A stretch of DNA of 64,000 nucleotides from a bacterium (GCA_028824015.1 JAPPFC010000017.1:141945-205944), one strand, 5' to 3'; shown: positions 23,795-54,640, counted from the first letter of the stretch. Notes: a model not told the origin generated them from the sequence alone. Program-made: numbers and translations.

Positions 23795-25531
23795 CTATAA
23801 GAGACCCCGACGCTCCGATCGGAGCGCCTCGGTGGCACTCTCATCCATCTGATAGTCCTCCGGGAGGCGGACCATCCGTTCGGCCGGTCCCGTGTAGCGG
23901 ATCACCACCCCGTAGTCCCGCTGCGCCCCGGCCACCGAGACGTATCCGTCCACCACGTCGGCCAGCACCATGGCGGGGTCTCGGTCCAGCGGATCGCCGA
24001 AACCCCCGCCGCCGGGAAGGTTGAGTTGCACTCGCTGATCCGGCCGGAGCGTCAGCAGCGCCTTGGGCTGGCCCCTCTCCTGGCCGGCGAGGAGAAACTC
24101 CCCTCGTGCGCCCGGTCCGCCTCCCAGCATCCCCTCGGGTGGATGGTTGATCCGGTCCACCATGGCCGAGACCGTCCATGCCTCCTCGGTGCGACATCCC
24201 ATCTCGGTGTACTGTCCAAGACCCCCCCGGTAGCGGCCCGGCCCTCCGGAGTCGGGACGGAGTTCCCGGCGGTGCTGGATCAGCGACGAGAGGGTCTCCA
24301 CGGCTTCGGCGGGCACGCCCGCCACCCCGCTGGGGAAACCGGTCGCGCTGAGGCCGTCCTTTCCGGCCCGGGCGCCTCCGCCTCCGCACTGGAAGAGACT
24401 GAAGGTGAACAGGTCTTGCTGGTCGGCAGGCCGGCCCCGCCAGACGCTGATCCAGATCGGGTCGGATCCGGCCGCCATCAGGGGCAATGCCTCCGCCAGC
24501 GCCCCGAAGATCACGCCCGGCAGGAAGTGTCCCAGGATGTGGCGCGAAGCCACCGCGGCGGGCGGTCGGCAGTTGAGGATGGAGCCGGGGGGAGCGGAGA
24601 CATGCACCGGCCGGAAAGCGCCCTCGTTGTGGGGCACCTCGGGGCTGACCGCCGCCTTCATGGCGAAGGAGGCGTAGGCGTGGGTGTAGTTGAAGACCAC
24701 ATTGATCCCTCGCCTGCTCTGGGGCGAGGAGCCGGCGAAGTCGATGTGGATATCCCGGTCCTCGACTACTACCGCCACTTTGATCCTGATCGGTTCCTCG
24801 AACCCGTCGCTCCAGGTCTCGTGCTCGTAGCGGCCGTTCGGGATGGTCTCGATCGACCGGCGCATCGCCTCCTCGGAGCGGTCCATTATCTCACGGGCGA
24901 CCGGATCGATGGAGTCCAGGTCGAACTCATCCATGAACTCGAGGAGCGCGCGGGCGCCCACCTCGTTGCTGGTGGTCTGGGCGTACAGGTCGCCAACCGT
25001 CTCGTCGGGAGTGCGCACGTTGGCCCGGATCAGCCTGATGAGATCCCGGTTGATCTCGCCTGCCCGGAACAGTTTCATGATGGGCAGTCGCAGTCCCTCC
25101 TCATAGACCTCGCGGGCCTCGGCGGAGAGGATCCTGCCTCCTATGTCTGCCGCGTGGCAGGTGTTGGCGAAGTACCCGACGATCCTCCCCCCCCGGAACA
25201 CCGGGGTGGCGACGGTGATGTCGTTGATCTGCCCGGCGGTCATCCACGGGTCGTTGGTGAGGAGCACATCGCCTTCAACCAGCCGATCGGGAGGGTATTC
25301 GGCCAGCAGATGACGCATCCCGGTGGCCATGGCGTTGATGTGGCCCGGGGTGCCGGTGAGCGACTGGGCCACCATGGCGCCTTCGGTGTTGAACACCCCG
25401 CAGGCCAGGTCCTGGGTCTCGCGGACGATGGTGCTGAACGCGGTCCGCATCAGGGCCACCTGCTGTTCGTTCACCACCGAGAGGAGCCTGTTCCACAGAA
25501 CTTCCAAGAAGATGGGGTCCATCCCGCTCAT
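23795..25531 (-). CDS. hyuB: hydantoinase B / 5-oxoprolinase family protein
   Basis: 578 aa; family-typical N-terminus (DPIFLEVLWNRL...) and length; directly downstream of hyuA with a 4-nt overlap. Confidence 0.85.
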   Translation of the reverse strand: MSGMDPIFLEVLWNRLLSVVNEQQVALMRTAFSTIVRETQDLACGVFNTEGAMVAQSLTGTPGHINAMATGMRHLLAEYPPDRLVEGDVLLTNDPWMTAGQINDITVATPVFRGGRIVGYFANTCHAADIGGRILSAEAREVYEEGLRLPIMKLFRAGEINRDLIRLIRANVRTPDETVGDLYAQTTSNEVGARALLEFMDEFDLDSIDPVAREIMDRSEEAMRRSIETIPNGRYEHETWSDGFEEPIRIKVAVVVEDRDIHIDFAGSSPQSRRGINVVFNYTHAYASFAMKAAVSPEVPHNEGAFRPVHVSAPPGSILNCRPPAAVASRHILGHFLPGVIFGALAEALPLMAAGSDPIWISVWRGRPADQQDLFTFSLFQCGGGGARAGKDGLSATGFPSGVAGVPAEAVETLSSLIQHRRELRPDSGGPGRYRGGLGQYTEMGCRTEEAWTVSAMVDRINHPPEGMLGGGPGARGEFLLAGQERGQPKALLTLRPDQRVQLNLPGGGGFGDPLDRDPAMVLADVVDGYVSVAGAQRDYGVVIRYTGPAERMVRLPEDYQMDESATEALRSERRGLL

Positions 25532-27648
25532 TCTCCGACGTCCCCTACGCCTGGTGTCACCACCAGGTTCAATTGAGAGTCCACCCGGATGCGGGCCCCC
25601 GGGCCCACCACCGCGGTCGACTCCCGTTCCTCGATGATGGCCTGCCCGGTCATCTCGTCGCCCGGCCTCAGCAGGTAGCGGTCGTAAACCGGCGTGTCCC
25701 GATAGTCCGAGTACTCCGGGAAGTAGGCCGGTCTCATTCCCTTCAGTGCGCCCCGGTCGGCAGGAGGCGGGTCACCGGTCGGTTGGTGGATGCTGGGCGC
25801 CGGCCCGGAACTCACCACCCTCCAGGTGAGCGCCTCCAGTCCTACTGCGGGGCCTGACCGTCCGTAGAGCTCCCGATAGACCCGGTCAAAGCTCTGCTGC
25901 AGGGGCAGTTCGTCATCCTCTCCCAAGGACCCTCCGGGTACCGGGACCCGAACCTCGTGGCCCTGTCCTATGTAACGGATGTCGACGCTGCGGGCGTGGG
26001 TGATCTCATCCGGGACCACCCCCGATGCGGTCAGCAGTTCGGTTCCCTGCCTTTCGAGATAAGCAAACAGCCGGTTGAGGTACTCCCAGTCGAGGTCGTC
26101 CAACCGGGCATAGTGGGATTGGACGAAATCGAATGCCAGGGGAGCGACCAGGAAACCCAACGCCGAGGTGACCCCGGCGGAAGGGGGGAGGACCAGAGAG
26201 GGGCTGCCGGTCAGTTCCGCAACCCGGTATCCGTGCACCGGCCCCGCCCCCCCGAAGGCGGCCAGCGGCAACGACCGGGGACTCTTGCCCCGCTCCACGA
26301 CATGCACGCGGGCGGCGTTGGCCATGTTCTCATTCACCAATTGGTGGATCCCCCACGCCGCCTCGGTCACCGACAGCCCCATCGGTCCGGCGATCCGGGC
26401 CTCGATGGACCGGCGGGCCGCTTCGGCGTCGAGTTCCATGCGGCCGCCCAGGAAGTAGTGAGGATCGAGGTATCCGAGGACCAGGTCGGCATCGGTGACG
26501 GTCGGCTGGGTCCCGCCCAGGCCATAGCACACCGGTCCCGGGTCCGATCCGGCCGACTCCGGTCCGATCTTTAGCAGTCCGAGTGGGTTGATCCGGGCGA
26601 TCGAGCCTCCTCCCGCCCCGATCTCGATCATCTCGATCACCGGCACCTTCACCGGCAGACCCGAGCCCTTCCGGAACCGGTACCGCCGGTCGACCTCGAA
26701 GTCGTATGTGACTGCCGGACGCCGGTCGGCGATCACGCACAGCTTGGCGGTGGTGCCCCCCATGTCGAAGGAGAGCAGGTTGTCCACCCCGGCGTCCGCA
26801 CCGAGGGACGCGGCCGCCAGCGCCCCTGCGGCCGGGCCGGATTCCAGCAGCCGGATGGGGAAGCGGGTGGCGGTATCCACGGTGGCTATACCACCCGACG
26901 ACAGCATCACGAAGAAGGATCCCTCGAACCCCAGATCGGAGAGGCGGCCCTCCAATCCCGACAGGTATTGCTCGGCGAGGGGCTGGACGTAGACGTTGGC
27001 GATGGTGGTGGAGGCGCGTTCGTATTCACGGATCTCAGGTGCCACCTCCGATGAGATCGAGACCCGCATCCGGGGAGCGGCGCGGTTCACTGCCCGGCGA
27101 GCGGCGCGTTCGTTGGCGGGATTGGCGAAACTGTGGAGAAAGCTGATCGCCACCGCTTCGATCCCCCGCTCGGCCAACTCGGCGGCGAGGGCCTCCACAA
27201 ACTCCTCGTCAACTTCCCGAAGCATCTCGCCCCCCGCCGCCATCCTTTCGGGAACGTCGAATCGAAGATGGCGAGGGGTGAGGGGAACGGGCATCTCCAG
27301 GAACAGGTCGTAGAGTTCGTAGCGGTGCTCCCGTCCGATCTCCACCGAGTCCCGGAAACCCCGGGTGGCCAGCAGAGCGGTGCTGGCGCCCTTGCGCTCG
27401 ATGATGGTGTTGGTCACCAGAGTGGTCCCATGCACCAGGTGCCTGACGTCCGACGCCCGAAGGCCTGATCTGTCAAGAGCCCGGACCAGGACTTCTTCCA
27501 CTCCCCGGGAAGGATCGTCGGGGGTGGTCAGGACCTTGCCCACCACCGTCTCTCCGGACAGGTCGTCGATCAACATCAGATCGGTGAAGGTGCCTCCGAT
27601 GTCAACCCCGATGCGAAAAGTGGCCGCTGGCGAGCCGGATGTCTTCAT
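25528..27648 (-). CDS. hyuA: hydantoinase A / 5-oxoprolinase family protein (ASKHA fold)
   Basis: 706 aa; N-terminal IGVDIGGTFTD actin-like ATPase motif typical of HyuA. Confidence 0.85.
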   Translation of the reverse strand: MKTSGSPAATFRIGVDIGGTFTDLMLIDDLSGETVVGKVLTTPDDPSRGVEEVLVRALDRSGLRASDVRHLVHGTTLVTNTIIERKGASTALLATRGFRDSVEIGREHRYELYDLFLEMPVPLTPRHLRFDVPERMAAGGEMLREVDEEFVEALAAELAERGIEAVAISFLHSFANPANERAARRAVNRAAPRMRVSISSEVAPEIREYERASTTIANVYVQPLAEQYLSGLEGRLSDLGFEGSFFVMLSSGGIATVDTATRFPIRLLESGPAAGALAAASLGADAGVDNLLSFDMGGTTAKLCVIADRRPAVTYDFEVDRRYRFRKGSGLPVKVPVIEMIEIGAGGGSIARINPLGLLKIGPESAGSDPGPVCYGLGGTQPTVTDADLVLGYLDPHYFLGGRMELDAEAARRSIEARIAGPMGLSVTEAAWGIHQLVNENMANAARVHVVERGKSPRSLPLAAFGGAGPVHGYRVAELTGSPSLVLPPSAGVTSALGFLVAPLAFDFVQSHYARLDDLDWEYLNRLFAYLERQGTELLTASGVVPDEITHARSVDIRYIGQGHEVRVPVPGGSLGEDDELPLQQSFDRVYRELYGRSGPAVGLEALTWRVVSSGPAPSIHQPTGDPPPADRGALKGMRPAYFPEYSDYRDTPVYDRYLLRPGDEMTGQAIIEERESTAVVGPGARIRVDSQLNLVVTPGVGDVGE

Positions 27649-36736: not shown

Positions 36737-37903
36737 TCAGCAGTCGAGGACGATCCACTCGTCGACCTGATCCACCATCCGGACCGGTCCGTCGGCGGTG
36801 ACCAGGACGTTGTCGGCGATACTGATCCCGCCCAGCATGGCGCCCTTCTCGGGATCGGGGATCGAGACGGCCGGGTGGGTGTTGATGATCATGTTCTCCT
36901 GCATGATCCGCTCCTTACCCGGTATCCACGGGGGTTCCAGCGAGTCGACGCCGATCCCGTGGGCGGTGAAGGAGTTGATGCTCCTCGCCGGGGGATAACC
37001 CCAGGCTTCGTAGCACTTATCGCGTGCGGCGAGAACGGTGTCGGAAGACTCTCCGGCCTTCATTGCCTGCACCACGGCGTCGAAGCTCGCCACCCGCATC
37101 TCCCAGAACTTCTGTTGCTCTGCAGTCGGAGGCTTGAAGCTGTACACCCTACGGACCTCGACCCAGTATCCCGAGGGGCCTCCCCACTCCAGGTCGATCA
37201 CCATGATGTCATCCTTCTCGATCACTCCCCGGGTTCCCGGCCCGAAACACTCGAAGGGCGCGCGGCCCATGAGGGCGATCCCCTCCATGCAGCCCAGTTG
37301 ACGCGCCAGCCGGTGCGCCTCGGAGAGAACATCGAGTTCCTCGACTCCGGGGCGTATCTCCGCCTCGATTCCCCTGAATACCTGGCGGACCAGCTTGCCG
37401 GTCTCGTAGGTGGCGTCGATCTCCTCCTGGCTCTTTATCATCCGGACGTCGTCGAAAAGGTCGGTGGCGTCCTGCCAGGTGGCGTTGGGGAGGGCGTTGC
37501 GCATGTCGTTGTAGTCCCCAACGCAGGTGATGTCGACCAGTCCCACTACGCCAATGGTTCCCTTGGCCAGTCCAAGATCGGAAAGGACCTCTCCGATCCC
37601 CGCTCCCGCGTTGTCGGGTTGGCGGTAGTCGTTGAGCCATCTGCCCTGCATGGCGTAGCCGGTGCCCCAGAGCGGATCCACCACGAATGTGGCCTCGCCG
37701 GAGGAGGGGAAAACCACGAAGCCACGGCCTGCCCACTGGAAGATGTCGCTCACATACTGGACCCGTCCACGTACGAACTCGTCGCCGCGGCTGCAGATAA
37801 CCCAGGCATCATGGCCGGCGGCGGCCATGACTTCCCGGAGGGCGGCATAGCGTCGGGCGCGCTCGGCATCTGAGGTGATGTGGCTTACGGGGACTTGTGT
37901 CAT
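36737..37903 (-). CDS. M24-family creatinase/Xaa-Pro peptidase-like hydrolase (paralog 1)
   Basis: 388 aa; creatinase-N-like domain + pita-bread fold; paralogous to 53477..54640 and 56602..57768. Confidence 0.8.
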   Translation of the reverse strand: MTQVPVSHITSDAERARRYAALREVMAAAGHDAWVICSRGDEFVRGRVQYVSDIFQWAGRGFVVFPSSGEATFVVDPLWGTGYAMQGRWLNDYRQPDNAGAGIGEVLSDLGLAKGTIGVVGLVDITCVGDYNDMRNALPNATWQDATDLFDDVRMIKSQEEIDATYETGKLVRQVFRGIEAEIRPGVEELDVLSEAHRLARQLGCMEGIALMGRAPFECFGPGTRGVIEKDDIMVIDLEWGGPSGYWVEVRRVYSFKPPTAEQQKFWEMRVASFDAVVQAMKAGESSDTVLAARDKCYEAWGYPPARSINSFTAHGIGVDSLEPPWIPGKERIMQENMIINTHPAVSIPDPEKGAMLGGISIADNVLVTADGPVRMVDQVDEWIVLDC

Positions 37904-38164
37904 GGTGCTCTCCTTGTTTCTGGGCTAGCGCTTGTCAGTTGATAATAGTTGCGGTGTCAGATGCGACTTCTCCAAGAGTGGGGGGAGTTAAAAGGCGTGT
38001 CCACGGGGCCTGCGGGCGGTTGTTTGGGGCGTTATCCTTACTGAAAAGCGCTTCGAAACTTCTGCCCTGCCGCCCGGATGGGCAGCGCGTGGAAAGGACC
38101 GGCTATCTCACCTGCAAAAGTAAAGACCAAGGGCGAGAACTTCACACGTCTCACCGGTGAGTGG

Positions 38165-39232
38165 ATGACGCCGCGCCGCCGCTTTTTGTCCGCGCTGTAC
38201 GGCGGGCGGGTCGACAAGGTCCCTGCCATGACACTCAGTTCGGTGGTAACCCTTGATGCAATGGAGATCGTCGACTCTTGGTTCCCTGAAGCGCATCTCG
38301 ACGCGGAGAAGATGGCCCGCCTGGCGGCCACCGCCCACGAGGAACTCGGTCTCGACACGATCATGCCGGTGTTCCATTCCCAACTCGAAGCCGACGCCCT
38401 TGACGCGGCCACCTGGTGGGGGACCGTGGACAACTGGCCGGCCACCAACGATCATGTGTTAACCGACCCCGAAGACTTCAAAATCCCATCCGACTACCTG
38501 AAGCGGCCGTCGTTCAAAGCGGTGCTCGGCGCCATCAGGCTGCTCCGGAAGCGTTACCCCGACGTGGGGATCGTGGGGAAGGTCTATGGCCCGTGGTCGG
38601 TTGGGTACCACTTGGTGGGAATCGAGAATTACCTGATGGATACGATCCTCGACCCCGACAAGATCCGCCGTTACCTCGAAGTGATGCTTCCTGCCTGCAT
38701 GATGTCGGCCCACGCTCAACTGGAAGCGGGCGCCGATGCCATCATGTGGGCGGATCACGCCAACCGGGAACTTGTCAGTCCCGAGACGTACCGAGACTTC
38801 CTCCTGGAGATGCACAAGGAAGTCACGGTGGAGATGGGCGGGCCCAGCATATTCCATTGCTGTGGGGAGACGACCGACCGGATCGACTATTTCGCCGAGG
38901 CTGGCTGGGACTGTTTCCACTTCGAGTCCCAGGTGGATCCCCATGTCGCCAAGGAGATCGCCGGGGACCGCATGTCCCTGATGGGCAACATCAACAATCC
39001 GACCACCCTGTTCAGCGGCACTTACGAGGACACCTACGAGGCGTGCATGAAGGTGCTGGAAGCCGGGATCAACGGGATCGCCCCGGAGGGTTCTGTGCCG
39101 CTCGGCACCAAAATTGACGTGCTCAGGGCACTGGCTGACTCGGTCCGCGACTATTCTGACACGCATAGGCCGGACGGGCGGCTGGTGGTTCACAATCCCC
39201 CACCGGCAGACCACGCGGCTGAAACAGACTGA
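38165..39232 (+). CDS. UroD-family methyltransferase (MtaA/O-demethylase MT I-like, substrate:corrinoid)
   Basis: Internal start MTPRRRFLSALYGGRVDKVP matches the URO-D/MtaA N-terminus; the ORF track begins at 38078. Confidence 0.75.
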   Translation: MTPRRRFLSALYGGRVDKVPAMTLSSVVTLDAMEIVDSWFPEAHLDAEKMARLAATAHEELGLDTIMPVFHSQLEADALDAATWWGTVDNWPATNDHVLTDPEDFKIPSDYLKRPSFKAVLGAIRLLRKRYPDVGIVGKVYGPWSVGYHLVGIENYLMDTILDPDKIRRYLEVMLPACMMSAHAQLEAGADAIMWADHANRELVSPETYRDFLLEMHKEVTVEMGGPSIFHCCGETTDRIDYFAEAGWDCFHFESQVDPHVAKEIAGDRMSLMGNINNPTTLFSGTYEDTYEACMKVLEAGINGIAPEGSVPLGTKIDVLRALADSVRDYSDTHRPDGRLVVHNPPPADHAAETD

Positions 39233-39281
39233 TAAAATGCCTGGCGCAACCCCACTTTGATATCCAGCCCCTTCTTTTTCC

Positions 39282-40031
39282 ATGGCCCAACTATCTGACA
39301 TAGCCAACGAGTTCATCCGCTTGGAGATTGAGGAGTTCCTCGAACGGCCCGAAGAGATAGAAAGGAATGTGGCGCTCTTCAACCGGGTATCGCCGGCCAT
39401 GCAGGACATCGCCGCAGCCCTGATCGATGGAGACGACGTCACCGTCGATCGGCTGACCAGGGAAGCATTGGATGGGGGAGTCGGAGCCCTCGAGATCATG
39501 GACGACGGGCTCATCGCCGGGATGGGGATAGTCGGAATCAAGTTCCGTGAGGGATACGTGTTCGTCCCGGAAGTTCTGGTGTCGGCCCGGGCGATGAAAG
39601 CCGGGATGGCGCACATCGAGCCGATCCTGGCCGCCTCCGGCGTGGAGCCGATCGGCACGGTGATCATGGGCACCGTCCAAGGCGATCTGCACGACATCGG
39701 CAAGAACCTTTGCATCATGATGCTGCGTGGCGGTGGTTTCACGGTGATCGACCTCGGCGTCAACACCTCCCCGGCGGAATTCGTCGCCGCGGTGGAAGAG
39801 CACCGCGCTCATCTGATCGGCATGTCCGCTCTGCTGACCACCACGATGCCGAACATGGCCAAAACGGTGGAGGCTTTCAAGGACGCCGGCCTGCGGGAGT
39901 CGGTGCGGTTCATGGTCGGCGGCGCTCCGGTCACCCCGGAGTTCGGCAAGGACGTGGGCGCCGACGGCTACGGTAAGGACGCGCTGGCCTGCGTGGAGTT
40001 GGCCAAGAAACTAGCCGTCGAGGTCAACTGA
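39282..40031 (+). CDS. cobalamin-binding corrinoid protein (MtaC/MtmC-like)
   Basis: 249 aa; B12-binding DxHxxG motif (DLHDIGKN) and Rossmann-like B12-binding domain after an N-terminal helical cap. Confidence 0.8.
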   Translation: MAQLSDIANEFIRLEIEEFLERPEEIERNVALFNRVSPAMQDIAAALIDGDDVTVDRLTREALDGGVGALEIMDDGLIAGMGIVGIKFREGYVFVPEVLVSARAMKAGMAHIEPILAASGVEPIGTVIMGTVQGDLHDIGKNLCIMMLRGGGFTVIDLGVNTSPAEFVAAVEEHRAHLIGMSALLTTTMPNMAKTVEAFKDAGLRESVRFMVGGAPVTPEFGKDVGADGYGKDALACVELAKKLAVEVN

Positions 40032-40043
40032 ACAGCACGGGCA

Positions 40044-40385
40044 ATGTCCGATTCCGAGAAGCAGGCCTTCCAGGAGCGGCTGGACCGCATGGCTGCAATC
40101 TTCGCGGACATAGTTTCCCACGCTGAGGAATCCTCCCGCACCCGCTGTCCCTATCGCGACCGCCACGATCTCTGCACCGCTATGTTCCGATGCCGCAACC
40201 AGGCGCCCGTGGCCGACCGCGACTCGGACGAACTTGTCTGTACCCACGACGGCACCTTCGATTACCGCACCGCCTGGGAATCCAATCCCCGAGCCTACGA
40301 GCGGACCCGGGAAAAGATAGTCAGGATCAAACAGGATGCGGAAGAGCGACGGAGACGCCGTTCCGGGGAGGACCCGATCCGGTGA
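40044..40385 (+). CDS. small Cys-containing protein of unknown function embedded in the methyltransferase cluster
   Basis: 113 aa; cysteines spaced CPY...C...C...C; tightly packed between the corrinoid protein and the activase, with its stop overlapping the activase GTG start. Confidence 0.4.
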   Translation: MSDSEKQAFQERLDRMAAIFADIVSHAEESSRTRCPYRDRHDLCTAMFRCRNQAPVADRDSDELVCTHDGTFDYRTAWESNPRAYERTREKIVRIKQDAEERRRRRSGEDPIR

Positions 40386-42061
40386 GCACCGTCGCCCATG
40401 GCGCGGAGACGCGGCCCCTTGTTGTCGGCAACACCATCTTCGACCATGCTGACGATTTGGGAGTCGAAGTGCCCACGTCGTGCCTGCGCAGGGGGGAATG
40501 TCACGAATGCGTGGTGGAGATAAGCGAGGGGATGGGAGCGCTGACGGAGCGGACCGAGACCGAGCGGTTCCTGCGAGGTGACTTCCGCCTTGCGTGCCAG
40601 GCCCGGGTCGTGCGCGAAGACCTCCCCGTCAGATTCGCACCACTTCGCAGACAGCCGAGGATCCTCGAGGCCAGCCGCCTGCGGGACCGGGGGCGCGGCG
40701 ACTTCTGTCCGGCCGTGACCCGGGTCGGCGACGAGGTCAGATACGGGGACATGGTGCTCGACCGCTACCGGGGCGCCATCTGCGGCCTGGCGGTGGATCT
40801 CGGCACTACCACGGTGGTCCTCGAGTTGGTGGATCTCGAATCGGGTACCACATTGGGGGTGGCCGGCTTCGAGAATCCCCAGCAGTTCGGCGGCAGCGAC
40901 GTGATGAACCGCATCTCCTACGAGGCCCGACCGGGGGTTGCCGGCGAACTCCAGAATGCCGCGGTGGCGGCCATCAACCGGGGCACCCGGGACCTGGCAC
41001 GCCGGGCCGGTCGGCGCGTCCCGCACGTATACGAGATCGTGGTGGCGGGCAACTCGACCATGCGGGACATCCTGTTCGGCATGAGCGTGCAGAGCATCGG
41101 GGAGATGCCGTACAAGTCCCTGACCGAGCACGAGTACCTGGCCGGGCGCCGACCTCACACCGCGGTGGTGGCCGACAGCAGGAGTTTGGGATTGCGCGCC
41201 AACCGCCGGGCCAAGGTGTATGGGATTCCACTGGTGGCCAGCCATGTGGGCGCCGATGCGGTGGCGTGCGTGGAGACGGTTCGATTGGGTGAGGAGGGAC
41301 GGACCGAGATGCTGGTCGACATGGGCACCAACACCGAGGTCGTGCTAAGCCATGGGGGCAGAATGTGGGCGGCCTCCTGTCCCGCAGGCCCGGCGTTCGA
41401 AGGCGGTCTGGTCACCTACGGGATGCGCGCCTACGACGGGGCCGTCGAGTCTATTACGGTGTCCGGGGACGGGACCGCGTCTTCCTACCGGACCATCGGG
41501 GACGAACCGGCGGTGGGCATCTGCGGTTCGGGTCTGGTTGACCTGCTGGCTGGGCTCCGCAGGCAGGGTCTGATGACCGAACGGGGCGCCTTTCCTCATG
41601 ATCGGAAGTTGTCCGACATCGACGTGATACCCGAGCGTGGCATCACCTTCTCGCGAGAGGACGCTAGCAACCTTGCCCAGGCCAAGGCTGCCAACTACTG
41701 CGGACAGTTGATCGTGATGCGCACCGCAGGAGTGGAACCCGCCGAGATCGACCGGTTGTACCTGGCGGGAGGGTTCGCCACTTATCTGGATGTGAGCGCC
41801 GCCATCGAGATCGGGCTCATCGCACCGGTGGCGATCGAAAGAGTGGTAAAAGTGGGCAACGCGGCGGTCGAAGGCGCTCGCGCCCTGCTGCTGTCGAAGA
41901 AGAAGCGACGCTGGGCGGAGGAGTTGACCAAGCAGGTCACCCACATAGAACTGGAAACCACCCCGGATTTCTTCGACATCTTTGTCGAAGGCTGCCAGCT
42001 AAAACCGATGCCTCCTGTTTTTGCGGGTCCTGAACCGGTGGCCCAACCGGTGCGATCATGA
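40382..42061 (+). CDS. RACo-like corrinoid reductive activase (N-terminal [2Fe-2S] ferredoxin + ASKHA ATPase)
   Basis: GTG start at 40382 (GTGA overlap); plant-type ferredoxin Cys pattern (C-x4-C-x2-C...C); large ASKHA-type domain (DLGTTTVV, DMGTNTEV); length matches RACo/RamA-type activases. Confidence 0.75.
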   Translation: MSTVAHGAETRPLVVGNTIFDHADDLGVEVPTSCLRRGECHECVVEISEGMGALTERTETERFLRGDFRLACQARVVREDLPVRFAPLRRQPRILEASRLRDRGRGDFCPAVTRVGDEVRYGDMVLDRYRGAICGLAVDLGTTTVVLELVDLESGTTLGVAGFENPQQFGGSDVMNRISYEARPGVAGELQNAAVAAINRGTRDLARRAGRRVPHVYEIVVAGNSTMRDILFGMSVQSIGEMPYKSLTEHEYLAGRRPHTAVVADSRSLGLRANRRAKVYGIPLVASHVGADAVACVETVRLGEEGRTEMLVDMGTNTEVVLSHGGRMWAASCPAGPAFEGGLVTYGMRAYDGAVESITVSGDGTASSYRTIGDEPAVGICGSGLVDLLAGLRRQGLMTERGAFPHDRKLSDIDVIPERGITFSREDASNLAQAKAANYCGQLIVMRTAGVEPAEIDRLYLAGGFATYLDVSAAIEIGLIAPVAIERVVKVGNAAVEGARALLLSKKKRRWAEELTKQVTHIELETTPDFFDIFVEGCQLKPMPPVFAGPEPVAQPVRS

Positions 42062-43083
42062 GCCGTCGGCGGTTCACGGTCATCGGCGAGAACGTCCACA
42101 CCAGCCGCATCGTTCTCCGCAAGGGCAAACGGTTCGCCACTCACGGGGGAGTCGAGGGGGTCAAGTTCGTGTCGGTTGACGGCGCTCCGGGTCTCTTGGT
42201 CATATCGGAGACCATGCGGGCAAGCCAGGCTTACGACGAGGGTCGCATCAAGCACATCGCGTTGGCTGTCGAGACGGCCATGGCCGGCGGCGACGGGGCG
42301 CCGACGGGCTGTGAGTACCTGCGGCGGGTGGTGTTCGACCAGGAACAGGCAGGCGCCCACTACCTGGACGTGAACGTCGATGAGATATCACTCAAGACCG
42401 AAGGACAGCGCCAGGCCATGGAGTGGCTGGTCGGCTACGTTCGGTCGTTGACAGCCCTTCCGATCTCGGTCGACTCCTCCGACATCACCGTGATAGAGAC
42501 CGGTCTGTCCGTGACAACCGGGACCGGTGATGGGAGACCGATGCTCAACTCGGCTTCCCTGGAACGGGCCGAGGCCGTCGAACTGGCCGTCGAGCACGGA
42601 GCGAGGGTGATAGTCACGGCCGCCGGCGCCGCCGGCATGCCGTCGGACGCCGCCGAGCGGATCGACAACGCGTCGCAGATGGTCGAAGCGGCCCTCGGGG
42701 TGGGAATCGCCATGGGAGACATCTTCGTGGATCCGCTGGTGTTCCCCATATCGGTGGATGGGTCCTTCGGGTTGCACACCCTCGACGCCATCCGCGAGAT
42801 CCGGCGCCGATTCGGCCCCGAGATCCACATCACAGGAGGCATGAGCAACGTCTCCTTCGGGATCCCCGCTCGTAGGTTGATGAACACCGTGTTCATCAAC
42901 CTGGCGGTCGAGGCCGGAGCGGACAGCGGCATCATCGACCCGGTCATGAACCCACTCTCCGCCGTGTTCGCCGCCGACCGCAACTCGGCGCCCTACCGGT
43001 TGGCCGAGGACGTCTTGCTGGGCCGGGACGAGCACTGCATGAATTACATCAGGGCATGGCGCAAAGGCGCCCTCAACCCGTAA
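42058..43083 (+). CDS. pterin-binding methyltransferase (methyl-corrinoid:tetrahydrofolate MT II, MtrH/MetH-pterin-domain-like)
   Basis: 341 aa; VIGENVHTSR N-terminus and DHPS-like TIM-barrel pattern; ATGA overlap with the activase. Confidence 0.75.
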   Translation: MSRRRFTVIGENVHTSRIVLRKGKRFATHGGVEGVKFVSVDGAPGLLVISETMRASQAYDEGRIKHIALAVETAMAGGDGAPTGCEYLRRVVFDQEQAGAHYLDVNVDEISLKTEGQRQAMEWLVGYVRSLTALPISVDSSDITVIETGLSVTTGTGDGRPMLNSASLERAEAVELAVEHGARVIVTAAGAAGMPSDAAERIDNASQMVEAALGVGIAMGDIFVDPLVFPISVDGSFGLHTLDAIREIRRRFGPEIHITGGMSNVSFGIPARRLMNTVFINLAVEAGADSGIIDPVMNPLSAVFAADRNSAPYRLAEDVLLGRDEHCMNYIRAWRKGALNP

Positions 43084-45292: not shown

Positions 45293-46681
45293 CTAAGTGG
45301 CGGAAGCCTGGGTCTCGGTGACGTTGCGGGGAGGACCGTCCGGGGAGACGAGTTTGCCTCCCGGCCCTTCCGCGACTTGACCCTTGTCGTAGACAACGCG
45401 GCCTCGAGACAGCGTCGTGAGGATCCGTCCGGAGAGGTCCAGTCCGTCATAGGCCTTGCCGCTTCCGCCGGATCGGCTGAGGAACCGGGAGGAGTGGGCG
45501 GTGATCCGCGCCTCGGGATCCACCAACACCAGGTCGGCTTCCGACCCGGGGGAGACCGTCCCCTTGCGGGGATAGATGCCGAACAGCTTGGCGGGATTGG
45601 CGGTCATCACCTCCACGGCCCTGGTCAGGGGAAGCCGACCGGTTAGACCGGCGTCGAGCATGGTCGGGACCAGCATCTCCAGGGAGGGGATCCCCTGCCC
45701 GGTGGTGGCGAAGTCGGCGGCTGCTTTCTCCTCGGGCGTGAATGGGGCGTGGTCGGACGCCACCACCGACAGCGACCCTCCGTTCAGCGCTTCCCACAAA
45801 TATGCAACGTCCTCGGGAGGGCGGAGCGGCGGGGCCACTTTCACGAAATTGCCGAGCTTGGGGATCAGGGACTCGTCGAACAGCAGATAGTGAGGGCAGG
45901 ACTCGGCGGAGAGGTCGACGCCCAACGCTTGGGCTGCTTCTACCTCTTCTGTGGCCATACGGGAAGTGATGTGGACGATGTGGGCGGGTATGCCGAGGTC
46001 CCGGATGGCGGTGGCCACCAGGCCCACCGCCGCCGCCTCCACCATGGGAGGACGGGAGGGATGTCCGAACCGGTCCGGGTCGAGGCTGAAACGCTCGATG
46101 AACTGCTGGCTCTCGGCATGCACCGCGCAACGCAGGCCGGTTGCGCCCACGGTCCGCAGGCAATCATAGATCTCTTCGGGCCCCGACGCCCACAGGCCCT
46201 CGAAGTCCACCATGCGGTGGGCCGGCGGGGTGTGGGTGAAGAGCTTGAACCCGATCGCGCCCAATTCGGCCATCGCCTCCGCCCGGGCCGGGTCGGTTGT
46301 CCCGGCGCCGCCGTACAGGGCGAAGTCGACCAGGCTTTCGGATTCTCCCAGATCCCGTCGCAGTTCAAATGCCTCGGGAGTGCTGCACGGAGGGTTGGAG
46401 ATCGGCATCTCGAAGAGCGTGGTGACCCCCGCCGAGGCGGCGGCCCGCGACTCCGACGCGAAGGTGGCCCGTTCGGGGTTGCTGGGCGCCCGGCAGTGGA
46501 AATGGGCATCCACCGCGCCGGGAATCACCAGCAGCCCCGAGGCATCGATCTCGCGCCGGGCCGCTCCCAGAGCGCCGGTCGGGGAGACCTCGGTGATGAG
46601 CTCGCCCTCCACGCCGACGTCAGCCGGACGCGAACGACCGTCGCTCACCACCGTCCCCCCGATGATTCTCAGATCAAGCAC
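45293..46681 (-). CDS. cyclic amidohydrolase (dihydropyrimidinase/allantoinase/dihydroorotase superfamily)
   Basis: 462 aa; metal-binding DAHFH motif and D-hydantoinase-like length. Confidence 0.75.
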   Translation of the reverse strand: MLDLRIIGGTVVSDGRSRPADVGVEGELITEVSPTGALGAARREIDASGLLVIPGAVDAHFHCRAPSNPERATFASESRAAASAGVTTLFEMPISNPPCSTPEAFELRRDLGESESLVDFALYGGAGTTDPARAEAMAELGAIGFKLFTHTPPAHRMVDFEGLWASGPEEIYDCLRTVGATGLRCAVHAESQQFIERFSLDPDRFGHPSRPPMVEAAAVGLVATAIRDLGIPAHIVHITSRMATEEVEAAQALGVDLSAESCPHYLLFDESLIPKLGNFVKVAPPLRPPEDVAYLWEALNGGSLSVVASDHAPFTPEEKAAADFATTGQGIPSLEMLVPTMLDAGLTGRLPLTRAVEVMTANPAKLFGIYPRKGTVSPGSEADLVLVDPEARITAHSSRFLSRSGGSGKAYDGLDLSGRILTTLSRGRVVYDKGQVAEGPGGKLVSPDGPPRNVTETQASAT

Positions 46682-46715
46682 TGATCTGTCTTATGTTGTC
46701 CTTGGCGAGCTTGGG

Positions 46716-48002
46716 CTAGGCCAGGCGATACTCGAGCTGCGGGCTGGGGCCCCAGTGGCTCTTCATGTCGCCGACGTCCCGTCCGGCTTGGGCGTAGCCG
46801 CCCTCCGACGAGATGGCCAGCATTCCACGGACATAGACCTTCTTGACATCGCCCACGGCGTTGAGGTCGGCGAGCGGATCGCCTCCCAAAGCCACGATGT
46901 CGGCGATCTTGCCCGGCTCCACTCTGCCCAGGTCCTCTTCGAGGCCCAGCACCACCATGGCGCGGCTGGTTGCCGCGTTGAGAACGTCCCTGGCGTCGGG
47001 GACCACCCCGATCTTCACCATGAACTTCATCTCCTCGACGATGGCGTAGTGGGGCACCGCCGGGCTTCCGGCGTCCGTGCCGAATATGATCCGGCCACCG
47101 GCCTTGGCGAAGTTGATGTTGCCCTCGAAGCGGGCTGTGTCATGCATGCTTGCCTTGCGGGCCTTGAGGTCGGTCTCGCTCATCCCGTACAGGTGGCCGA
47201 ACAGTGCCTGCTGCACATTGGGGGAGTAGGTGGTGACGATGGGGATGTCCTTTTCCACCAGCTTCTCGATGGTCTTCATGGTCATCTGACCACCGTGCTC
47301 CACGCAGTCCACCCCGGCCTCCACCACCCGGTCGATGGCGTGGTCGAAAGTGGCGTGAGCGGTGACCTTCATGTTGTTCTGATGCGCTTCTTCGCACATG
47401 GCTTGCAACTCTTCGAAGGTGAACTGCTCTCTCACGTGGGAGCCCATGATCTTGATCCACTTGGCGCCGGCCTTGAACTGCTCCCGGATGGCCTGGCGAA
47501 CCCCGTAGATCCCGTCGGCTTCCCGACAGACCCACCAGGTGTGGCCGCCGGTGGTGCAGATCGCCCGTCCGTTGGGGAACAGGCGGATCCAGGGCGCCCA
47601 GCCGTTGTCGATGGCGTACTTGGCGTCGACGTTGGCATTGTTCATGCCCAGGTCGCGGATGGTCGTGACCCCCGCGGAGAGGGTGCGGTGGATGTTCATT
47701 ATCGCCTTCATGGCGTTGACGGCGGGGGACTCATAGCCCTGCATCTCCAGGTCGTGGGTGCCGTCCCAGCCCAGGTGAACGTGGAGGTTCGCCAGGCCCG
47801 GGATGAGCCACATGCCAGATACGTCCACCACGTTGTCGCCCGGTTGGGGGTCCGACGCTCCTACCGCTACGATCCGCTCGGCCTCGATGGTTACGTCCTG
47901 TTGCTGGGAAGGCGTGTCGTCGTCGAGATTGACTACGACGCCACCTTTGAGAATTGTTCTCACGGGTTGGTTCCTTTCTATATCGTGGTCAGATTCTTCC
48001 AT
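46716..48002 (-). CDS. amidohydrolase-family metal-dependent hydrolase
   Basis: 428 aa; HVHLGWD metal-binding motif and amidohydrolase_1 pattern. Confidence 0.75.
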   Translation of the reverse strand: MEESDHDIERNQPVRTILKGGVVVNLDDDTPSQQQDVTIEAERIVAVGASDPQPGDNVVDVSGMWLIPGLANLHVHLGWDGTHDLEMQGYESPAVNAMKAIMNIHRTLSAGVTTIRDLGMNNANVDAKYAIDNGWAPWIRLFPNGRAICTTGGHTWWVCREADGIYGVRQAIREQFKAGAKWIKIMGSHVREQFTFEELQAMCEEAHQNNMKVTAHATFDHAIDRVVEAGVDCVEHGGQMTMKTIEKLVEKDIPIVTTYSPNVQQALFGHLYGMSETDLKARKASMHDTARFEGNINFAKAGGRIIFGTDAGSPAVPHYAIVEEMKFMVKIGVVPDARDVLNAATSRAMVVLGLEEDLGRVEPGKIADIVALGGDPLADLNAVGDVKKVYVRGMLAISSEGGYAQAGRDVGDMKSHWGPSPQLEYRLA

Positions 48003-49371
48003 GGCGCCGTAGGGCGGTCCCCACCGCGGCCAGGTTGGTAAGGGTCAGTTCCGAGTAGTTGCGGGAGATCATCACTCCCCCCGCTCCGCCTGCCAGGGAG
48101 GCGTCCACCATGTCCTCCACGTCTGGGGGGTTGATGGCGCGATCCACCGTCTCAACGCCCAGGCCGATGCCGGGATAGACCTGAACATCCGGGCCCACCG
48201 CCTCCACGTGCCGCCTGGTGAACTCTTTGACGTACTCAGGGCTGAATCCTGCGGCCGGGAGGTCCTCGTAGGGAGCCTCGTCCAAGCCGAGGATCTTGTA
48301 GAGGATCGGCGTCCACTCCGACGGCGAGGCGTCGCCCAAGATGGTCTGACACATCTTGTTGACGAAACTGACGAACCGCGCACCGCCGGGTGCGTTGTAG
48401 AACACCGGCTTCAGCCAGTCGGCGTACAGCTTGTACTCGGCCGGATCGAAGGCTGCCCGGAGCAGGGGGTTGAACGTGTTGATCATCTGCCAGATCCCGA
48501 AGCCCACCTGGTACTGGGGGCCGAAGAAACGGATCTGTCCGGAGATCTCCCGGTAGAGGCCCTTGTGTCCGTCCCACCAGAGCTTTTGCCATTGCAGGAC
48601 CTCGGGGTACTCGAAGAGGTGGCGGAGGAAGGTGATCAGCTTGCCGTCGGGTGGCTCATGGCCGCCTCGCACCGCGGTGAGATAGTCATAGATCCTCCGG
48701 TAACCCTCGGCGGCCCGTCCGGCGTCGATGTTCCGGCGATGGGCCTCTGAGCGGCAGTGGACGCAGAAGCAGGTAGGCACTTCGGCCGAGACGATCATCG
48801 ACGAGAGCGGGTCCTCGCGCTCGATGCCCCACATAACCCCGTTCAGGTCGTACTCGTTGAGCCAGTTGTCGATGACGCCGAACCACCAGTTCTTGTAGTT
48901 GGGGTTGTGGAAGCAGGGGCGGGTGTCCTTGCGGCCCCACGCGTCGATCTCCAACACCTGGGAGAACCCCGGCTGCCACAGAGGCTTGGGTCTGGCATGA
49001 GCGGTCTCGCAGTAGTAGGTGAAGACCTCCATGCCCCGTTCCTTTGCGGCGGGGATCACGTCTCCGAGGATGTCCCAGCCCTCGTAGAGAGGATCGGGAG
49101 CGGTGAAGTCCTTGATCGTGGTGCCGTGGTAGTACTTGGGGTCGGGCGGGAAGAACGCCCCGCCCTGCAGGTTGTCGGGTTCCTGCCCACCGTGGTCGGG
49201 GTAGTCGCCGCTGCCGGAACGCCCGGCGTTGCCCCGCGCCCAGGAGAGGGCGGAGATGAAGATGGCGTTCACGCCGGCCAGTTCGGTGAAGATGTCGAGG
49301 GTCTCCTCCACCCCTTCGTCGATGAAGCTGATTCCCCCTACCTGCATACCGACAAATGTCTTCTCGCTCAT
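47989..49371 (-). CDS. conserved hypothetical protein (~460 aa) within the amidohydrolase cluster
   Basis: Internal start MSEKTFVGMQVGG at 49371 overlaps the stop of the upstream dehydrogenase (ATGA); no motif recognised. Confidence 0.5.
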   Translation of the reverse strand: MSEKTFVGMQVGGISFIDEGVEETLDIFTELAGVNAIFISALSWARGNAGRSGSGDYPDHGGQEPDNLQGGAFFPPDPKYYHGTTIKDFTAPDPLYEGWDILGDVIPAAKERGMEVFTYYCETAHARPKPLWQPGFSQVLEIDAWGRKDTRPCFHNPNYKNWWFGVIDNWLNEYDLNGVMWGIEREDPLSSMIVSAEVPTCFCVHCRSEAHRRNIDAGRAAEGYRRIYDYLTAVRGGHEPPDGKLITFLRHLFEYPEVLQWQKLWWDGHKGLYREISGQIRFFGPQYQVGFGIWQMINTFNPLLRAAFDPAEYKLYADWLKPVFYNAPGGARFVSFVNKMCQTILGDASPSEWTPILYKILGLDEAPYEDLPAAGFSPEYVKEFTRRHVEAVGPDVQVYPGIGLGVETVDRAINPPDVEDMVDASLAGGAGGVMISRNYSELTLTNLAAVGTALRRHGRI

Positions 49372-50369
49372 CCTGGTACTCCATTCCGTCGGCGGATGAC
49401 CCGTCCGGCGGAGCCCAGTTCCAGGGCCACCGTGTCGCCGGCGGGCGTCCCGGCGGTGTGGGGGGTCATCAGCAGGTTGGGGGTGCTCCGGAGAGGACTG
49501 TCCGGGAGGATGGGCTCCCACCAGAACACGTCGAGGGCGGCGCCCGCCAGATGCCCGCTGTGAAGCGCGGCCATCAGGGCGTCCTCGTCCACCAGGCGCC
49601 CGCGGGCGGTGTTGACGAAGAAGGAGCCCTCGGGCATCAGGGCGAACTCCCGAGCGCCCATCATCTTCTCGGTCTCGGGGGTGAACTTGTTATGGAGCGA
49701 GACGCAGTGTGACTCGGCCAGGAGCTCGTCGAAGGGAAGGTAACGGATTCCCAGTTCGGCCTCTTCCTCGGGCGAGAACCTGTTTCGCTTGTAATACACG
49801 ACATCACACCCGAACGCCACCAAAAGCTTGGCCGCCACCCGTCCGATGCCGCCTACGCCCACCAGGCCCACTGTCTTGCCCAGCACGGCCTCGAACAACT
49901 CGAGGCCCACCCAGTTGTAGGAGTAGTTGATCTGGTCGGTGACGAACGGCTCCATTCCATCCACGATCACCCCGTCCATCAGCCGCTCGTAGGCGGTGGG
50001 CAGGCGTTTGAAGAGCGCCAGGATCATCATCACGGCGTGCTCGGCCACGCTGGTGGGCCCGGGGGACACGACGCCCTCGGTCCAAATCCCCATGGAGTCA
50101 CAGACCGCCGGGGAGACGGTGGCGCCACCCGAGTCGATGGTGACCACGCCCCGGAGAGAGGAGAGGCCGGCCAGTTGGTCGTCGTCGAGGCTCGTCTCCC
50201 GCAACACCAGGTAGTCGGCCTGGCCTATGGTCCCCGACGCGAGAGCGTCGGTGAGTACCGTGGCGCCCTCGGGGAGGGCATGCTGGAGGGTCGCCACCTG
50301 GGCGGCTGTGAACTCTTCGACTATTGCTACTGCGGGTCCACTCACTTGTCGGCCAGACAGTCGTTCCAC
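49368..50369 (-). CDS. D-isomer-specific 2-hydroxyacid dehydrogenase (NAD-binding)
   Basis: 333 aa; GKTVGLVGVGGIGRVAAK Rossmann motif and catalytic R/E/H pattern. Confidence 0.8.
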   Translation of the reverse strand: MERLSGRQVSGPAVAIVEEFTAAQVATLQHALPEGATVLTDALASGTIGQADYLVLRETSLDDDQLAGLSSLRGVVTIDSGGATVSPAVCDSMGIWTEGVVSPGPTSVAEHAVMMILALFKRLPTAYERLMDGVIVDGMEPFVTDQINYSYNWVGLELFEAVLGKTVGLVGVGGIGRVAAKLLVAFGCDVVYYKRNRFSPEEEAELGIRYLPFDELLAESHCVSLHNKFTPETEKMMGAREFALMPEGSFFVNTARGRLVDEDALMAALHSGHLAGAALDVFWWEPILPDSPLRSTPNLLMTPHTAGTPAGDTVALELGSAGRVIRRRNGVPG

Positions 50370-53476: not shown

Positions 53477-54640
53477 ATGGCAGAAGGAACCGTAACCCAT
53501 ATTTCCTCTCCCGCTGAGCGGGAAAGGCGTTATCGAGTACTGCGCGAGGCCATGGCCGCGGAAGGCATGGATGCGTTGATCATCTACAGCCGCGCCGATG
53601 AGTTCATGAGAGGCCGCATCCAGTACGTGAGCGATGCCTTCCAGTGGGCCGGATGGGGGATCATCGTGCTTCTCCCCAAGGGCGATGGCATCTACGTCGG
53701 CGATCCCCTGTGGGGAGGCGGACGGGTGGCCCTGGCCGGCTGGGTCGACGACATTCGAGCCACCCAGCACCCCGATACCGAGATCGCCGGCATTCTCTCC
53801 GACCACGGTTACACGAGCGGGAAACTCGGAGTAGTGGGTTTGGCCGACATCGTCACCTACGCGCACATGCGCTCCTTCCAGAAGACTCTCAGCGGCTTCA
53901 CCCTGGTGGACGCCACCGACCTCTTCGATGACATCCGCGCCGTCAAGAGCCCCGAGGAGATGGAGAACCTGCGGGAGACTTCACGGATCCTCAAGCAGGT
54001 GTTCAACAGCCTCGAAGCCCACCTGCGTCCTGGGGTCCTCGAGATCGACGCGATGGCCGAGGCCGAGCGACTGGTTCGCCAGTATGGCTGCCTGACCGGG
54101 ATCGCCCAGATCGCCCGCCCGCCCTTCAAGTCCTACACCTTCGGGATGTTCGCCGAGATAGATCGCAAGGACATCATCTCCATAGACCTGGAGTGGGGAG
54201 GCCCCTCCGGCTATTGGCTGGAGTTGCGACGCAATTACAGCTTCGGAGAGCCCTCCGACCAGGTCAAACGCTTCTTCGAGTACCGGTTGGAGTGTTTGGA
54301 CGCCTGCATAAATGCGATGAAGACCGGCAACTCCTCCGACGACGTACTGGTGGCCCGCGACCGGGTGAACGACAAGTACGGCTATGGCGGACGGGAGTCG
54401 GTGGGCTACACCGCTCACGGCATCGGTCTGGACTCCCTGGAGCCCCCGTGGTCGCCGGGGAAGGAGCGGATCATGGAGACCGACATGGTGATCAATCTCC
54501 ATCCCCACATGAGCTTCAGCGATCCGGCCGAAGCCCTGGCGGTTTCGGGCATCTCGCTCTCCGACAACATCCGGGTGACTCCCACCGGAGGCGAGCGGCT
54601 CACGGAGTGGACAGACGTACTGGTCGACCTGGATGCCTAA
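53477..54640 (+). CDS. M24-family creatinase/Xaa-Pro peptidase-like hydrolase (paralog 2)
   Basis: 387 aa; near-collinear with paralogs 1 and 3 (shared HISSPAERxRRY...VQYVSD N-terminus). Confidence 0.8.
   Translation: MAEGTVTHISSPAERERRYRVLREAMAAEGMDALIIYSRADEFMRGRIQYVSDAFQWAGWGIIVLLPKGDGIYVGDPLWGGGRVALAGWVDDIRATQHPDTEIAGILSDHGYTSGKLGVVGLADIVTYAHMRSFQKTLSGFTLVDATDLFDDIRAVKSPEEMENLRETSRILKQVFNSLEAHLRPGVLEIDAMAEAERLVRQYGCLTGIAQIARPPFKSYTFGMFAEIDRKDIISIDLEWGGPSGYWLELRRNYSFGEPSDQVKRFFEYRLECLDACINAMKTGNSSDDVLVARDRVNDKYGYGGRESVGYTAHGIGLDSLEPPWSPGKERIMETDMVINLHPHMSFSDPAEALAVSGISLSDNIRVTPTGGERLTEWTDVLVDLDA

Follow-up and report, generated by a model that had tools for sequence, protein, structure and literature searches.

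A candidate corrinoid-dependent methyl-X:tetrahydrofolate methyltransferase module with an MtaA-like enzyme in sponge-associated Acidimicrobiia

What does a set of genes with the parts of an anaerobic O-demethylase do in a bacterium that respires oxygen? The question is raised by five consecutive genes, here called MT1, CoP, Cys4, RACo and MT2, at positions 38078-43083 of the plus strand of a bacterial DNA stretch of 64,000 nucleotides (GCA_028824015.1 JAPPFC010000017.1:141945-205944). This stretch is hereafter called the window, and positions refer to it unless another locus is named. An earlier note on the same DNA had described the genes as a complete four-component corrinoid-dependent demethylase cluster of a putative actinobacterium, likening it to the O-demethylase and methyl-X:tetrahydrofolate (THF) methyltransferase systems of anaerobic Firmicutes. 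Our analysis makes it probable, on grounds of sequence, that the module is a self-contained corrinoid-dependent methyl-X:THF methyltransferase system in an oxygen-respiring sponge symbiont of the Acidimicrobiia, with a donor-side enzyme that belongs to a different branch from the one the O-demethylase comparison implies.

The five-gene module and its conservation

All five open reading frames (ORFs) were recovered at the positions first proposed, and their domain assignments carry E-values far beyond chance. MT1 (38078..39232, plus strand, as are the other four) is a predicted MtaA-like corrinoid methyltransferase of the UroD superfamily and the proposed methyltransferase I (MT I), matching PF01208 URO-D with E 8.7e-56. 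It is followed by CoP (39282..40031), a corrinoid (B12) carrier with cap and Rossmann domains and His-on coordination (PF02607 B12-binding_2, PF02310 B12-binding), by the 113-aa protein Cys4 (40044..40385), by the ATP-dependent reductive activase RACo (40382..42061) and by MT2 (42058..43083), a pterin-binding methylcorrinoid:THF methyltransferase (methyltransferase II, MT II; PF00809 Pterin_bind, E 1e-23). The overlapping stops and starts seen earlier are real: the stop of Cys4 and the start of RACo share the four nucleotides GTGA at 40382-40385, and the stop of RACo and the start of MT2 share ATGA at 42058-42061, the remaining gaps between module genes being 49 and 12 nucleotides. The four functional components, the operon-like layout and the roles first given to the UroD-like protein (substrate side) and the pterin-binding protein (folate side) thus hold up.

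Among solved structures, the best relatives of CoP, RACo and MT2 come from O-demethylase or acetogen systems, and for these three components the likeness drawn by the earlier note stands; it fails for MT1, as discussed below. The motifs DLHDIG, SAL and GG are readable in the CoP translation, so that the histidine ligand of the DxHxxG motif is intact. CoP comes closest, among solved structures, to a corrinoid protein of Moorella, 1Y80 (E 3.6e-61). With Dhaf4611, the corrinoid protein of an O-demethylase, CoP shares 47% identity, and its best NCBIfam match, MtgC_2, stays under that model's cutoff. RACo combines PF00111 Fer2, PF17651 Raco_middle and PF14574 RACo_C_ter (E down to 3.8e-69), carries the cysteine pattern SCLRRGECHEC...LACQ together with the motifs DLGTTT and DMGTNTE, and aligns with E 6e-67 to 3ZYY/4C1N, chains deposited as “iron-sulfur cluster binding protein” that we take to be RACo. 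Its ORF extends from 40190 to 42061; the GTG at 40382 is the likely start, because it overlaps the Cys4 stop and aligns to the linker of a homologue, P0233, in which the two proteins are fused. MT2 scores 199 bits against NCBIfam PRK07535, under the cutoff of 259, and its best solved relatives are 4O0Q/4O1E/4O1F (E 2.3e-34), which we take to be MT II of the Desulfitobacterium hafniense O-demethylase, followed by AcsE/MeTr and the pterin domains of MetH.

Cys4 is 55-100% identical across all Acidimicrobiia loci, with the shared motif RCPYR..D.CTA..CR.Q...C.H.G..DYR.AW and invariant residues C35, C44, C50, C66 and H68, and it gave no match in Pfam, in NCBIfam or in the structural search. Its AlphaFold model (pLDDT 84.7) places a small cysteine-rich knot between two long helices. 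An exhaustive profile search gathered 198 representative proteins into the family, several of which are N-terminal fusions to Fer2 and RACo domains; P0233 (L088:925-2868) is a continuous Cys4-RACo protein of 647 aa encoded directly after a corrinoid protein gene. Cys4 is an undescribed domain family, and in view of these fusions and of the GTGA overlap we propose that it is a detachable N-terminal module of the activase. We infer that it may bind a metal, either Zn or an Fe-S cluster, and serve electron input or docking.

The high-GC actinobacterial host first suspected can now be placed more closely. A scan for MT1 relatives, limited to one genome per species, returned 335 loci, and the best 37 (83-96% identical) all come from metagenome-assembled genomes (MAGs) of Acidimicrobiia or Candidatus Spongiisociaceae, mostly from sponge or coral. 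The region is 93% identical in nucleotides to one of these MAG loci (L001), and on these sequence grounds the source is a sponge- or coral-associated member of the Acidimicrobiia (Ca. Spongiisociaceae). The window has a GC content of 62-67% and a strong GC3 codon bias. The window is chromosomal and also encodes dnaK-grpE-dnaJ, glpX, CtaB (heme O synthase) and CtaA (heme A synthase), the last two of which indicate that the host respires oxygen.

All Acidimicrobiia loci whose length allows a judgement (37 loci) share the gene order MT1-CoP-Cys4-RACo-MT2, with differing flanks. A second tier of MT1 relatives, 62-68% identical, belongs to Chloroflexota, including Limnocylindria and soil Chloroflexia, and a third, at 47-56%, includes Moorella, Desulfosporosinus, Thermoanaerobacterium, Negativicutes and others. 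About 25 Chloroflexota loci combine MT1, CoP, MT2 and RACo, with MT1-CoP facing MT2-RACo on the opposite strand. Cys4 is absent from the Chloroflexota loci by profile search, and in nine of them DUF1638 follows CoP in its place. The shared set therefore defines a conserved four-component unit across two phyla, of which only the accessory protein differs by phylum.

One group of loci (L006-L014) departs from this uniformity in a single component: there RACo is only 48-57% identical to the protein of the window, though MT1 is 92-95% and CoP 88-93% identical. Either a much faster evolution of the activase or its exchange would produce such a pattern.

Family and metal site of MT1

The start of MT1 is ambiguous between ATG 38078, which has no Shine-Dalgarno sequence, and an internal start such as ATG 38165. 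At 38089-38165, shortly inside the annotated 5′ end, an invariant GGAAAGGA is followed by a conserved coding stretch. Variation in the 29 codons before Met30 follows a synonymous pattern, and they encode a conserved peptide, GENFTRLTGEW. This conservation as coding sequence upstream of 38165 tells against a start there.

MT1 aligns over its full length with Methanosarcina mazei MtaA (4AY7; 31% identity over 326 aa, E 2e-52), whereas its similarity to Dhaf4610, the characterised aryl methyl ether MT I of D. hafniense, amounts to 19% over 152 aa (E 0.002), measured with a Dhaf4610 sequence that was taken from the supplement of PMC9930637 and carries slight noise from optical character recognition. 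The prediction of an MT I of the O-demethylase type is not borne out by these values, and orthology to the aryl O-demethylase MT I (OdmB/VdmB/MtvB/Dhaf4610 type) is rejected on the comparison with Dhaf4610. Orthology to CmuA is rejected as well, the enzyme of Methylorubrum extorquens CM4 being 24.8% identical (E 1e-6). Nor does MT1 fall among genuine uroporphyrinogen decarboxylases, one of two outcomes named earlier as undoing the assignment, the other being loss of the His ligand of CoP, which is intact: the hemE model TIGR01464 gives 40 bits against a cutoff of 303, and solved UroD structures are matched with E 2.7e-7, compared with E 1.6e-45 for MtaA. The best NCBIfam matches are the methylcobalamin:coenzyme M methyltransferase model PRK06252 (241.5, cutoff 244) and the MtaA/CmuA model TIGR01463 mtaA_cmuA (226.6, cutoff 235.4), both near misses, and NCBI names the homologues of MT1 “MtaA/CmuA family”.

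In the preprint of Kountz and Balskus, MtaA-like proteins (Mlps) are defined by more than 25% identity to a characterised soluble coenzyme M methyltransferase (SCMT); they are about 17% identical to OdmB/VdmB and branch with the SCMTs, apart from the aromatic O-demethylases (PMC10418091). With the identity to M. mazei MtaA given above, MT1 lies within this definition, and its sequence places it among the MtaA-like enzymes in the SCMT branch of the UroD superfamily.

The predicted metal site is where MT1 parts from its characterised relatives. MtaA binds zinc through the His and Cys of an HxC motif and the Cys of a PGC motif. MT1 keeps HxC within FHCCG (38855-38866) and reads PEG (39083-39091) where MtaA has PGC, so that the position of the third Cys is Gly and the canonical His-Cys-Cys ligand set is incomplete. 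In the alignment, anaerobic relatives carry HICG...PEC, from which it follows that the Glu is ancestral and that only the Cys was lost in MT1. For this reason a change from Cys to carboxylate, considered as a sign of oxygen chemistry, was dropped: relatives with PEC carry the same Glu.

Motif combinations among the 120 best MT1 homologues bear on how the loss came about. HCCG is paired with PEG in 81 sequences and HICG with PEC in 19, while HDCG with PEC occurs once; five sequences hold HCCG and PEC, and having both cysteines, they may be intermediates. PEG in the absence of the extra Cys beside the His was met in none, and loss of the third Cys is thus found solely together with HCC. These pairings suggest an order in which the vicinal Cys arose before the Cys of PEC disappeared, a relocation of the ligand in which Cys261 may substitute for the missing third Cys, and MT1 has probably retained a soft site of one His and two Cys in rearranged form. 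His-Cys-Cys sites mark sulfur and selenium methyltransferases, and changes from Cys to carboxylate mark O-methyltransferases (PMC10418091). In MT1 the third Cys is replaced by Gly rather than by a carboxylate, the adjoining Glu occurs equally in those relatives whose Cys is retained, and the extra Cys always accompanies the loss; read in this way, the ligand pattern would favour chemistry of the sulfur type over the oxygen type.

Direction of transfer and the methyl donor

In the proposed mechanism MT1, a zinc-type TIM barrel, would transfer the methyl group of a small methylated donor to the Co(I) corrinoid on CoP, and MT2, as the acceptor side, would pass it to folate. Accidental oxidation to Co(II), to be expected often in an aerobe, would be answered by RACo, which would re-reduce the cofactor at the expense of ATP through its [2Fe-2S] cluster, with Cys4 assisting as a split-off N-terminal metal-binding module.

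The direction of this flow, like the nature of the donor, we infer from relatives of the module. A marine contig of 31% GC (L090:1682-6987, with L091) carries in order a homocysteine S-methyltransferase gene (PF02574), an unknown gene, URO-D, CoP, Cys4 and RACo, the last four being 37% (with HICG/PEC motifs), 63%, 48% and 44% identical to the proteins of the window. No pterin enzyme was found on the L090 contig and a homocysteine acceptor enzyme is already present, so the URO-D protein there must be the donor side. By homology, the role of donor-specific MT I in the window would fall to MT1 and that of the acceptor side to MT2. A gene for methylenetetrahydrofolate reductase (MTHFR) with DUF5981 adjoins MT2 in three loci, L085 (3667-4437, 7000-8562) and the Chloroflexota loci L037 and L049, and in Ruegeria metF2 is induced together with MtgBCD (PMC12478193); both would fit an oxidation of the methyl-THF product. 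MtgBCD also provides an aerobic marine precedent for corrinoid methyltransferases that work with reductive activators (PMC12478193).

Taken as a whole, the L090/L091 gene set resembles a direct methyl-X-to-methionine system.

Methyl flow in the opposite, biosynthetic direction is the alternative that touches the system as a whole, and we regard it as distinctly unlikely. MT2 would then charge CoP with the methyl group of methyl-THF, and MT1 would hand it on to a thiol or another acceptor, or else CoP, MT2 and RACo would form the core of a split methionine synthase together with a homocysteine methyltransferase encoded apart from them. MtaA and MtbA, the characterised relatives of MT1, do run from methyl-corrinoid to thiol (PMC10418091), MtgD and MtgC of Ruegeria serve demethylation and methionine synthesis alike (PMC12478193), and a related CoP-Cys4-RACo set is tied to a homocysteine S-methyltransferase on L090. 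On that very contig, however, the acceptor enzyme leaves the donor side to URO-D; a PF02574-like gene was not found by tblastn in the window or in related loci; and the MTHFR gene beside MT2 in some Chloroflexota, compatible with both directions, is nevertheless typical of one-carbon (C1) oxidation.

If a donor-to-folate direction is accepted, the donor itself must be chosen among several classes. We slightly favour a methylated sulfur compound, such as methanethiol, dimethylsulfide or another methylthio compound, as a tentative assignment; a methyl-sulfur (or methyl-selenium) donor is suggested because MT1 lies in the SCMT branch, which transfers S- and Se-methyl groups, and because its site probably consists of a His and two Cys. 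An O-methyl compound is possible but doubtful, a donor of some other class unlikely, and a methyl halide improbable. A small permeant donor such as methanethiol, dimethylsulfide or a methyl halide would suit the module, given that it is self-contained, lacks a transporter and occurs in variable contexts.

An O-demethylase, as the earlier note had proposed, would have MT1 cleave a methyl ether and deliver the methyl group to THF, the substrate being a methoxylated aromatic or, if the neighbours of the relatives are a guide, an O-methylated sugar or cyclitol; we consider this rather doubtful. It would account well for the architecture and for the D. hafniense O-demethylase components as closest solved relatives of CoP and MT2, and the missing third canonical Cys with a near-invariant Glu beside its position could be read in its favour. 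MT1 itself does not follow, however, being close to MtaA over its full length and only distantly and partially similar to Dhaf4610; the Glu is shared with the PEC relatives and so replaces no ligand, and the loss of the Cys is always paired with a new Cys beside the His. The sister Acidimicrobiia clade and soil Chloroflexota do have sugar-type genes beside the module, but the subclade of the window itself lacks them, and we know of no corrinoid-dependent sugar O-demethylase, nor was one found in a literature search. A methyl halide (chloromethane or bromomethane) system built like CmuA/CmuB but of separate proteins, which we hold to be improbable, would agree with the aerobic host, with the same logic of an MtaA/CmuA-family methyltransferase, a corrinoid and a pterin methyltransferase, and with the NCBI family name. 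A transporter-free module in variable neighbourhoods would likewise suit a C1 substrate that permeates membranes and whose leaving group requires no additional catabolic steps. Against it stand the low identity of MT1 to CmuA, the methyltransferase and corrinoid domains, which are unfused here and fused in CmuA, and the folD, purU and cob genes, which flank cmuA on pCMU01 and are all absent here. The sugar-type neighbours of the relatives may point to an O-methyl or methylthio sugar-like substrate.

Several observations weigh against a methyl-X:THF methyltransferase with a sulfur-type MT1. MT1 falls, if narrowly, under both NCBIfam mtaA/cmuA cutoffs; its third canonical Cys ligand is absent and the vicinal Cys is a candidate ligand only; and since the sequences are related, the covariation of the ligands may represent a single evolutionary event. 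The Ruegeria pterin enzyme MtgD is reported to be bidirectional, so methyl flow here could run in reverse (PMC12478193). Near the operon, scans for sigma-70 promoters and intrinsic terminators gave nothing above the shuffled expectation, and no Rfam element, a cobalamin riboswitch included, was detected. The window holds no transporter, MTHFR, FolD or PurU gene, tblastn finding neither MTHFR nor a homocysteine S-methyltransferase.

Neighbouring genes, related systems and implications

Upstream of the module, a divergent intergenic region (37904..38077), presumed to contain the promoter and partly conserved among close relatives, separates MT1 from a divergently transcribed gene on the minus strand for a prolidase-like M24 hydrolase (36737..37903; PF00557 and PF01321), whose membership in the system is uncertain. 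The M24 gene adjoins the module in all 15 of the 15 loci of the window's subclade and is absent from the sister clade and from Chloroflexota. Its product is closest to prolidases among solved structures (E 1.5e-18) and has no specific NCBIfam family, and a creatinase or dimethylsulfoniopropionate lyase DddP was rejected, as only a second M24 paralogue matches DddP at all, with 29 bits against a cutoff of 600. The neighbouring creatinase-like, amidase and hydantoinase genes had been taken earlier as a hint at a methylated N- or O-compound. This hint is weak, because the M24 protein is prolidase-like and linked to the module in one subclade, the hydantoinase A/B genes (23795-27648) and the amidase gene (58424-59842) lie 10-15 kb from the module, and the flanks are not conserved.

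Downstream of the module, amidohydrolase genes follow in the window's subclade. The flanks of the sister Acidimicrobiia clade encode instead a PTE lactonase, an SDR protein, a zinc alcohol dehydrogenase (Zn-ADH), an arabinose-isomerase-like protein, a dimethylformamidase-like pair and a P450, among others. Sugar-type genes beside the module in this clade and in soil Chloroflexia (L016:2678-8409; L039:300-9922; L081) comprise those for the Zn-ADH, the arabinose-isomerase-like protein, the PTE lactonase and the SDR protein together with GFO_IDH_MocA, MR_MLE, LacI and a sugar ABC transporter. Their cross-phylum identities are 50-52% for Zn-ADH, 52% for the arabinose-isomerase-like protein and 69% for MR_MLE, some of them comparable to MT1, and this range suggests co-transfer of a larger island.

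Among the more distant relatives, a group with HxC/PEC motifs has a D-2-hydroxyacid dehydrogenase gene directly after the module in three lineages. Moorella and Negativicutes relatives (L086:8001-11550; L087:4835-9023) show the arrangement URO-D-MFS transporter-(corrinoid protein)-URO-D with a PucR-like regulator. The Moorella relative P0090, with about 53-55% identity to MT1, sits in a URO-D-MFS-URO-D arrangement, and genes of its type appear, from gene layout rather than a locus-tag match, to be the “solitary mtaA” genes of Moorella; the acetogen MtaA proper is a 29.7 kDa protein.

The rest of the window holds further features. Three M24 paralogues (36737-37903, 53477-54640 and 56602-57768) are creatinase/prolidase by Pfam name, and with hydantoinase A/B, the allantoinase- or hydantoinase-like and Xaa-Pro-dipeptidase-like amidohydrolases at 45293-48002, the amidase and RidA they make the window dense in hydrolases of amides and N-heterocycles. 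No Pfam match was obtained for two ORFs that are long and show good codon bias, 47989-49521 (510 aa) and 13318-14781 (487 aa). In the window's subclade the former, which likewise lacks an NCBIfam match, shows 85-100% conservation downstream of the module. A low-GC island at 10409-12259 (about 55% against about 64%) encodes a 616-aa protein that shows, by eye, a DGQQR motif and an HNH-like C-terminal region, features typical of DUF262/DUF1524 (GmrSD-like) restriction proteins, and the flanking ORF 9794-10198 looks MsrB-like by eye.

Compared with described systems, the module shares its four parts, MT I, corrinoid protein, MT II and RACE/RACo activase, with the anaerobic O-demethylases (D. hafniense Dhaf4610-4612 with its activating enzyme, Acetobacterium dehalogenans Odm/Vdm, Moorella MtvABC), from which it differs by an MT1 of another UroD branch, an oxygen-respiring Acidimicrobiia host and the additional Cys4. 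The closest characterised relatives of MT1 itself are the soluble coenzyme M methyltransferases of methanogens (MtaA, MtbA, MtsA), with which it shares HxC. The present host is not a methanogen and makes no coenzyme M, the module is paired with a folate methyltransferase, and MT1 has Gly for the third zinc Cys of PGC and an extra Cys beside the His. Type 1 mlp clusters combine MtaA-like protein, corrinoid protein and bacterial-type activase, and methyl-sulfur or -selenium substrates have been proposed for them; they contain two or three Mlps (at least Mlp2 and Mlp3), lack an H4folate methyltransferase and occur in obligate anaerobes only (PMC10418091). In contrast, the present module has one Mlp and a pterin methyltransferase in an aerobic host, and its classification as a type 1 mlp cluster was rejected on account of the single URO-D gene, the pterin methyltransferase and the CtaA and CtaB genes of the window.

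Aerobic counterparts are also found. CmuA/CmuB of aerobic methylotrophs likewise transfer methyl groups to THF in a corrinoid-dependent manner with an MtaA/CmuA-family enzyme, but CmuA is a fused methyltransferase-corrinoid protein where MT1 and CoP are separate genes, and the folD, purU and cob neighbours are missing; with the identity to CmuA given above, a Cmu chloromethane dehalogenase was rejected. The MtgBCD(E)/split MetH systems of Ruegeria and Phaeobacter are also modular, aerobic and marine, and contain pterin and corrinoid subunits with the reactivation proteins RamA and DUF1638. Their donor enzyme is the MttB-family MtgB, whereas here it is of the UroD type, and the accessory protein is DUF1638 there and Cys4 here; DUF1638 is nonetheless carried by some Chloroflexota versions of the present module.

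Literature searches on the lineage name and on sponge symbiont corrinoid methyltransferases returned no description of this cluster. The overall architecture will not surprise a specialist. New here are an MT I of the Mlp type coupled to a folate methyltransferase, the aerobic host, the rearranged metal-ligand pattern and a new accessory domain of the activase; the lineage, the enzyme branch, Cys4 and possibly a trace-gas substrate merit follow-up. As of 2023, MtaA-like proteins outside methanogens were without an assigned role, and the only family described was confined to anaerobes and lacked a folate methyltransferase (PMC10418091). The module ties an enzyme of this kind to THF, and does so in oxygen-respiring bacteria from two phyla, abundant sponge symbionts and common soil Chloroflexota among them. 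Cys4 provides a tangible starting point for studying the organisation of Co(I) reactivation, and the HCC/PEG relocation of a ligand poses a testable question of structure and function.

It is possible, and we put this forward tentatively, that sponge-symbiont Acidimicrobiia and soil and freshwater Chloroflexota share an unrecognised aerobic route by which the methyl groups of volatile or small methylated sulfur compounds, or of methyl halides, would enter the folate C1 pool. The route would use an MtaA-type enzyme whose Cys ligand has been relocated, and the activase, equipped with Cys4 as a metal module, would help to sustain Co(I) chemistry in oxygen-respiring cells. Should methyl-sulfur compounds or methyl halides be the donors, the module would represent a new sink for climate-relevant trace gases and would add to the B12 dependence of these communities.

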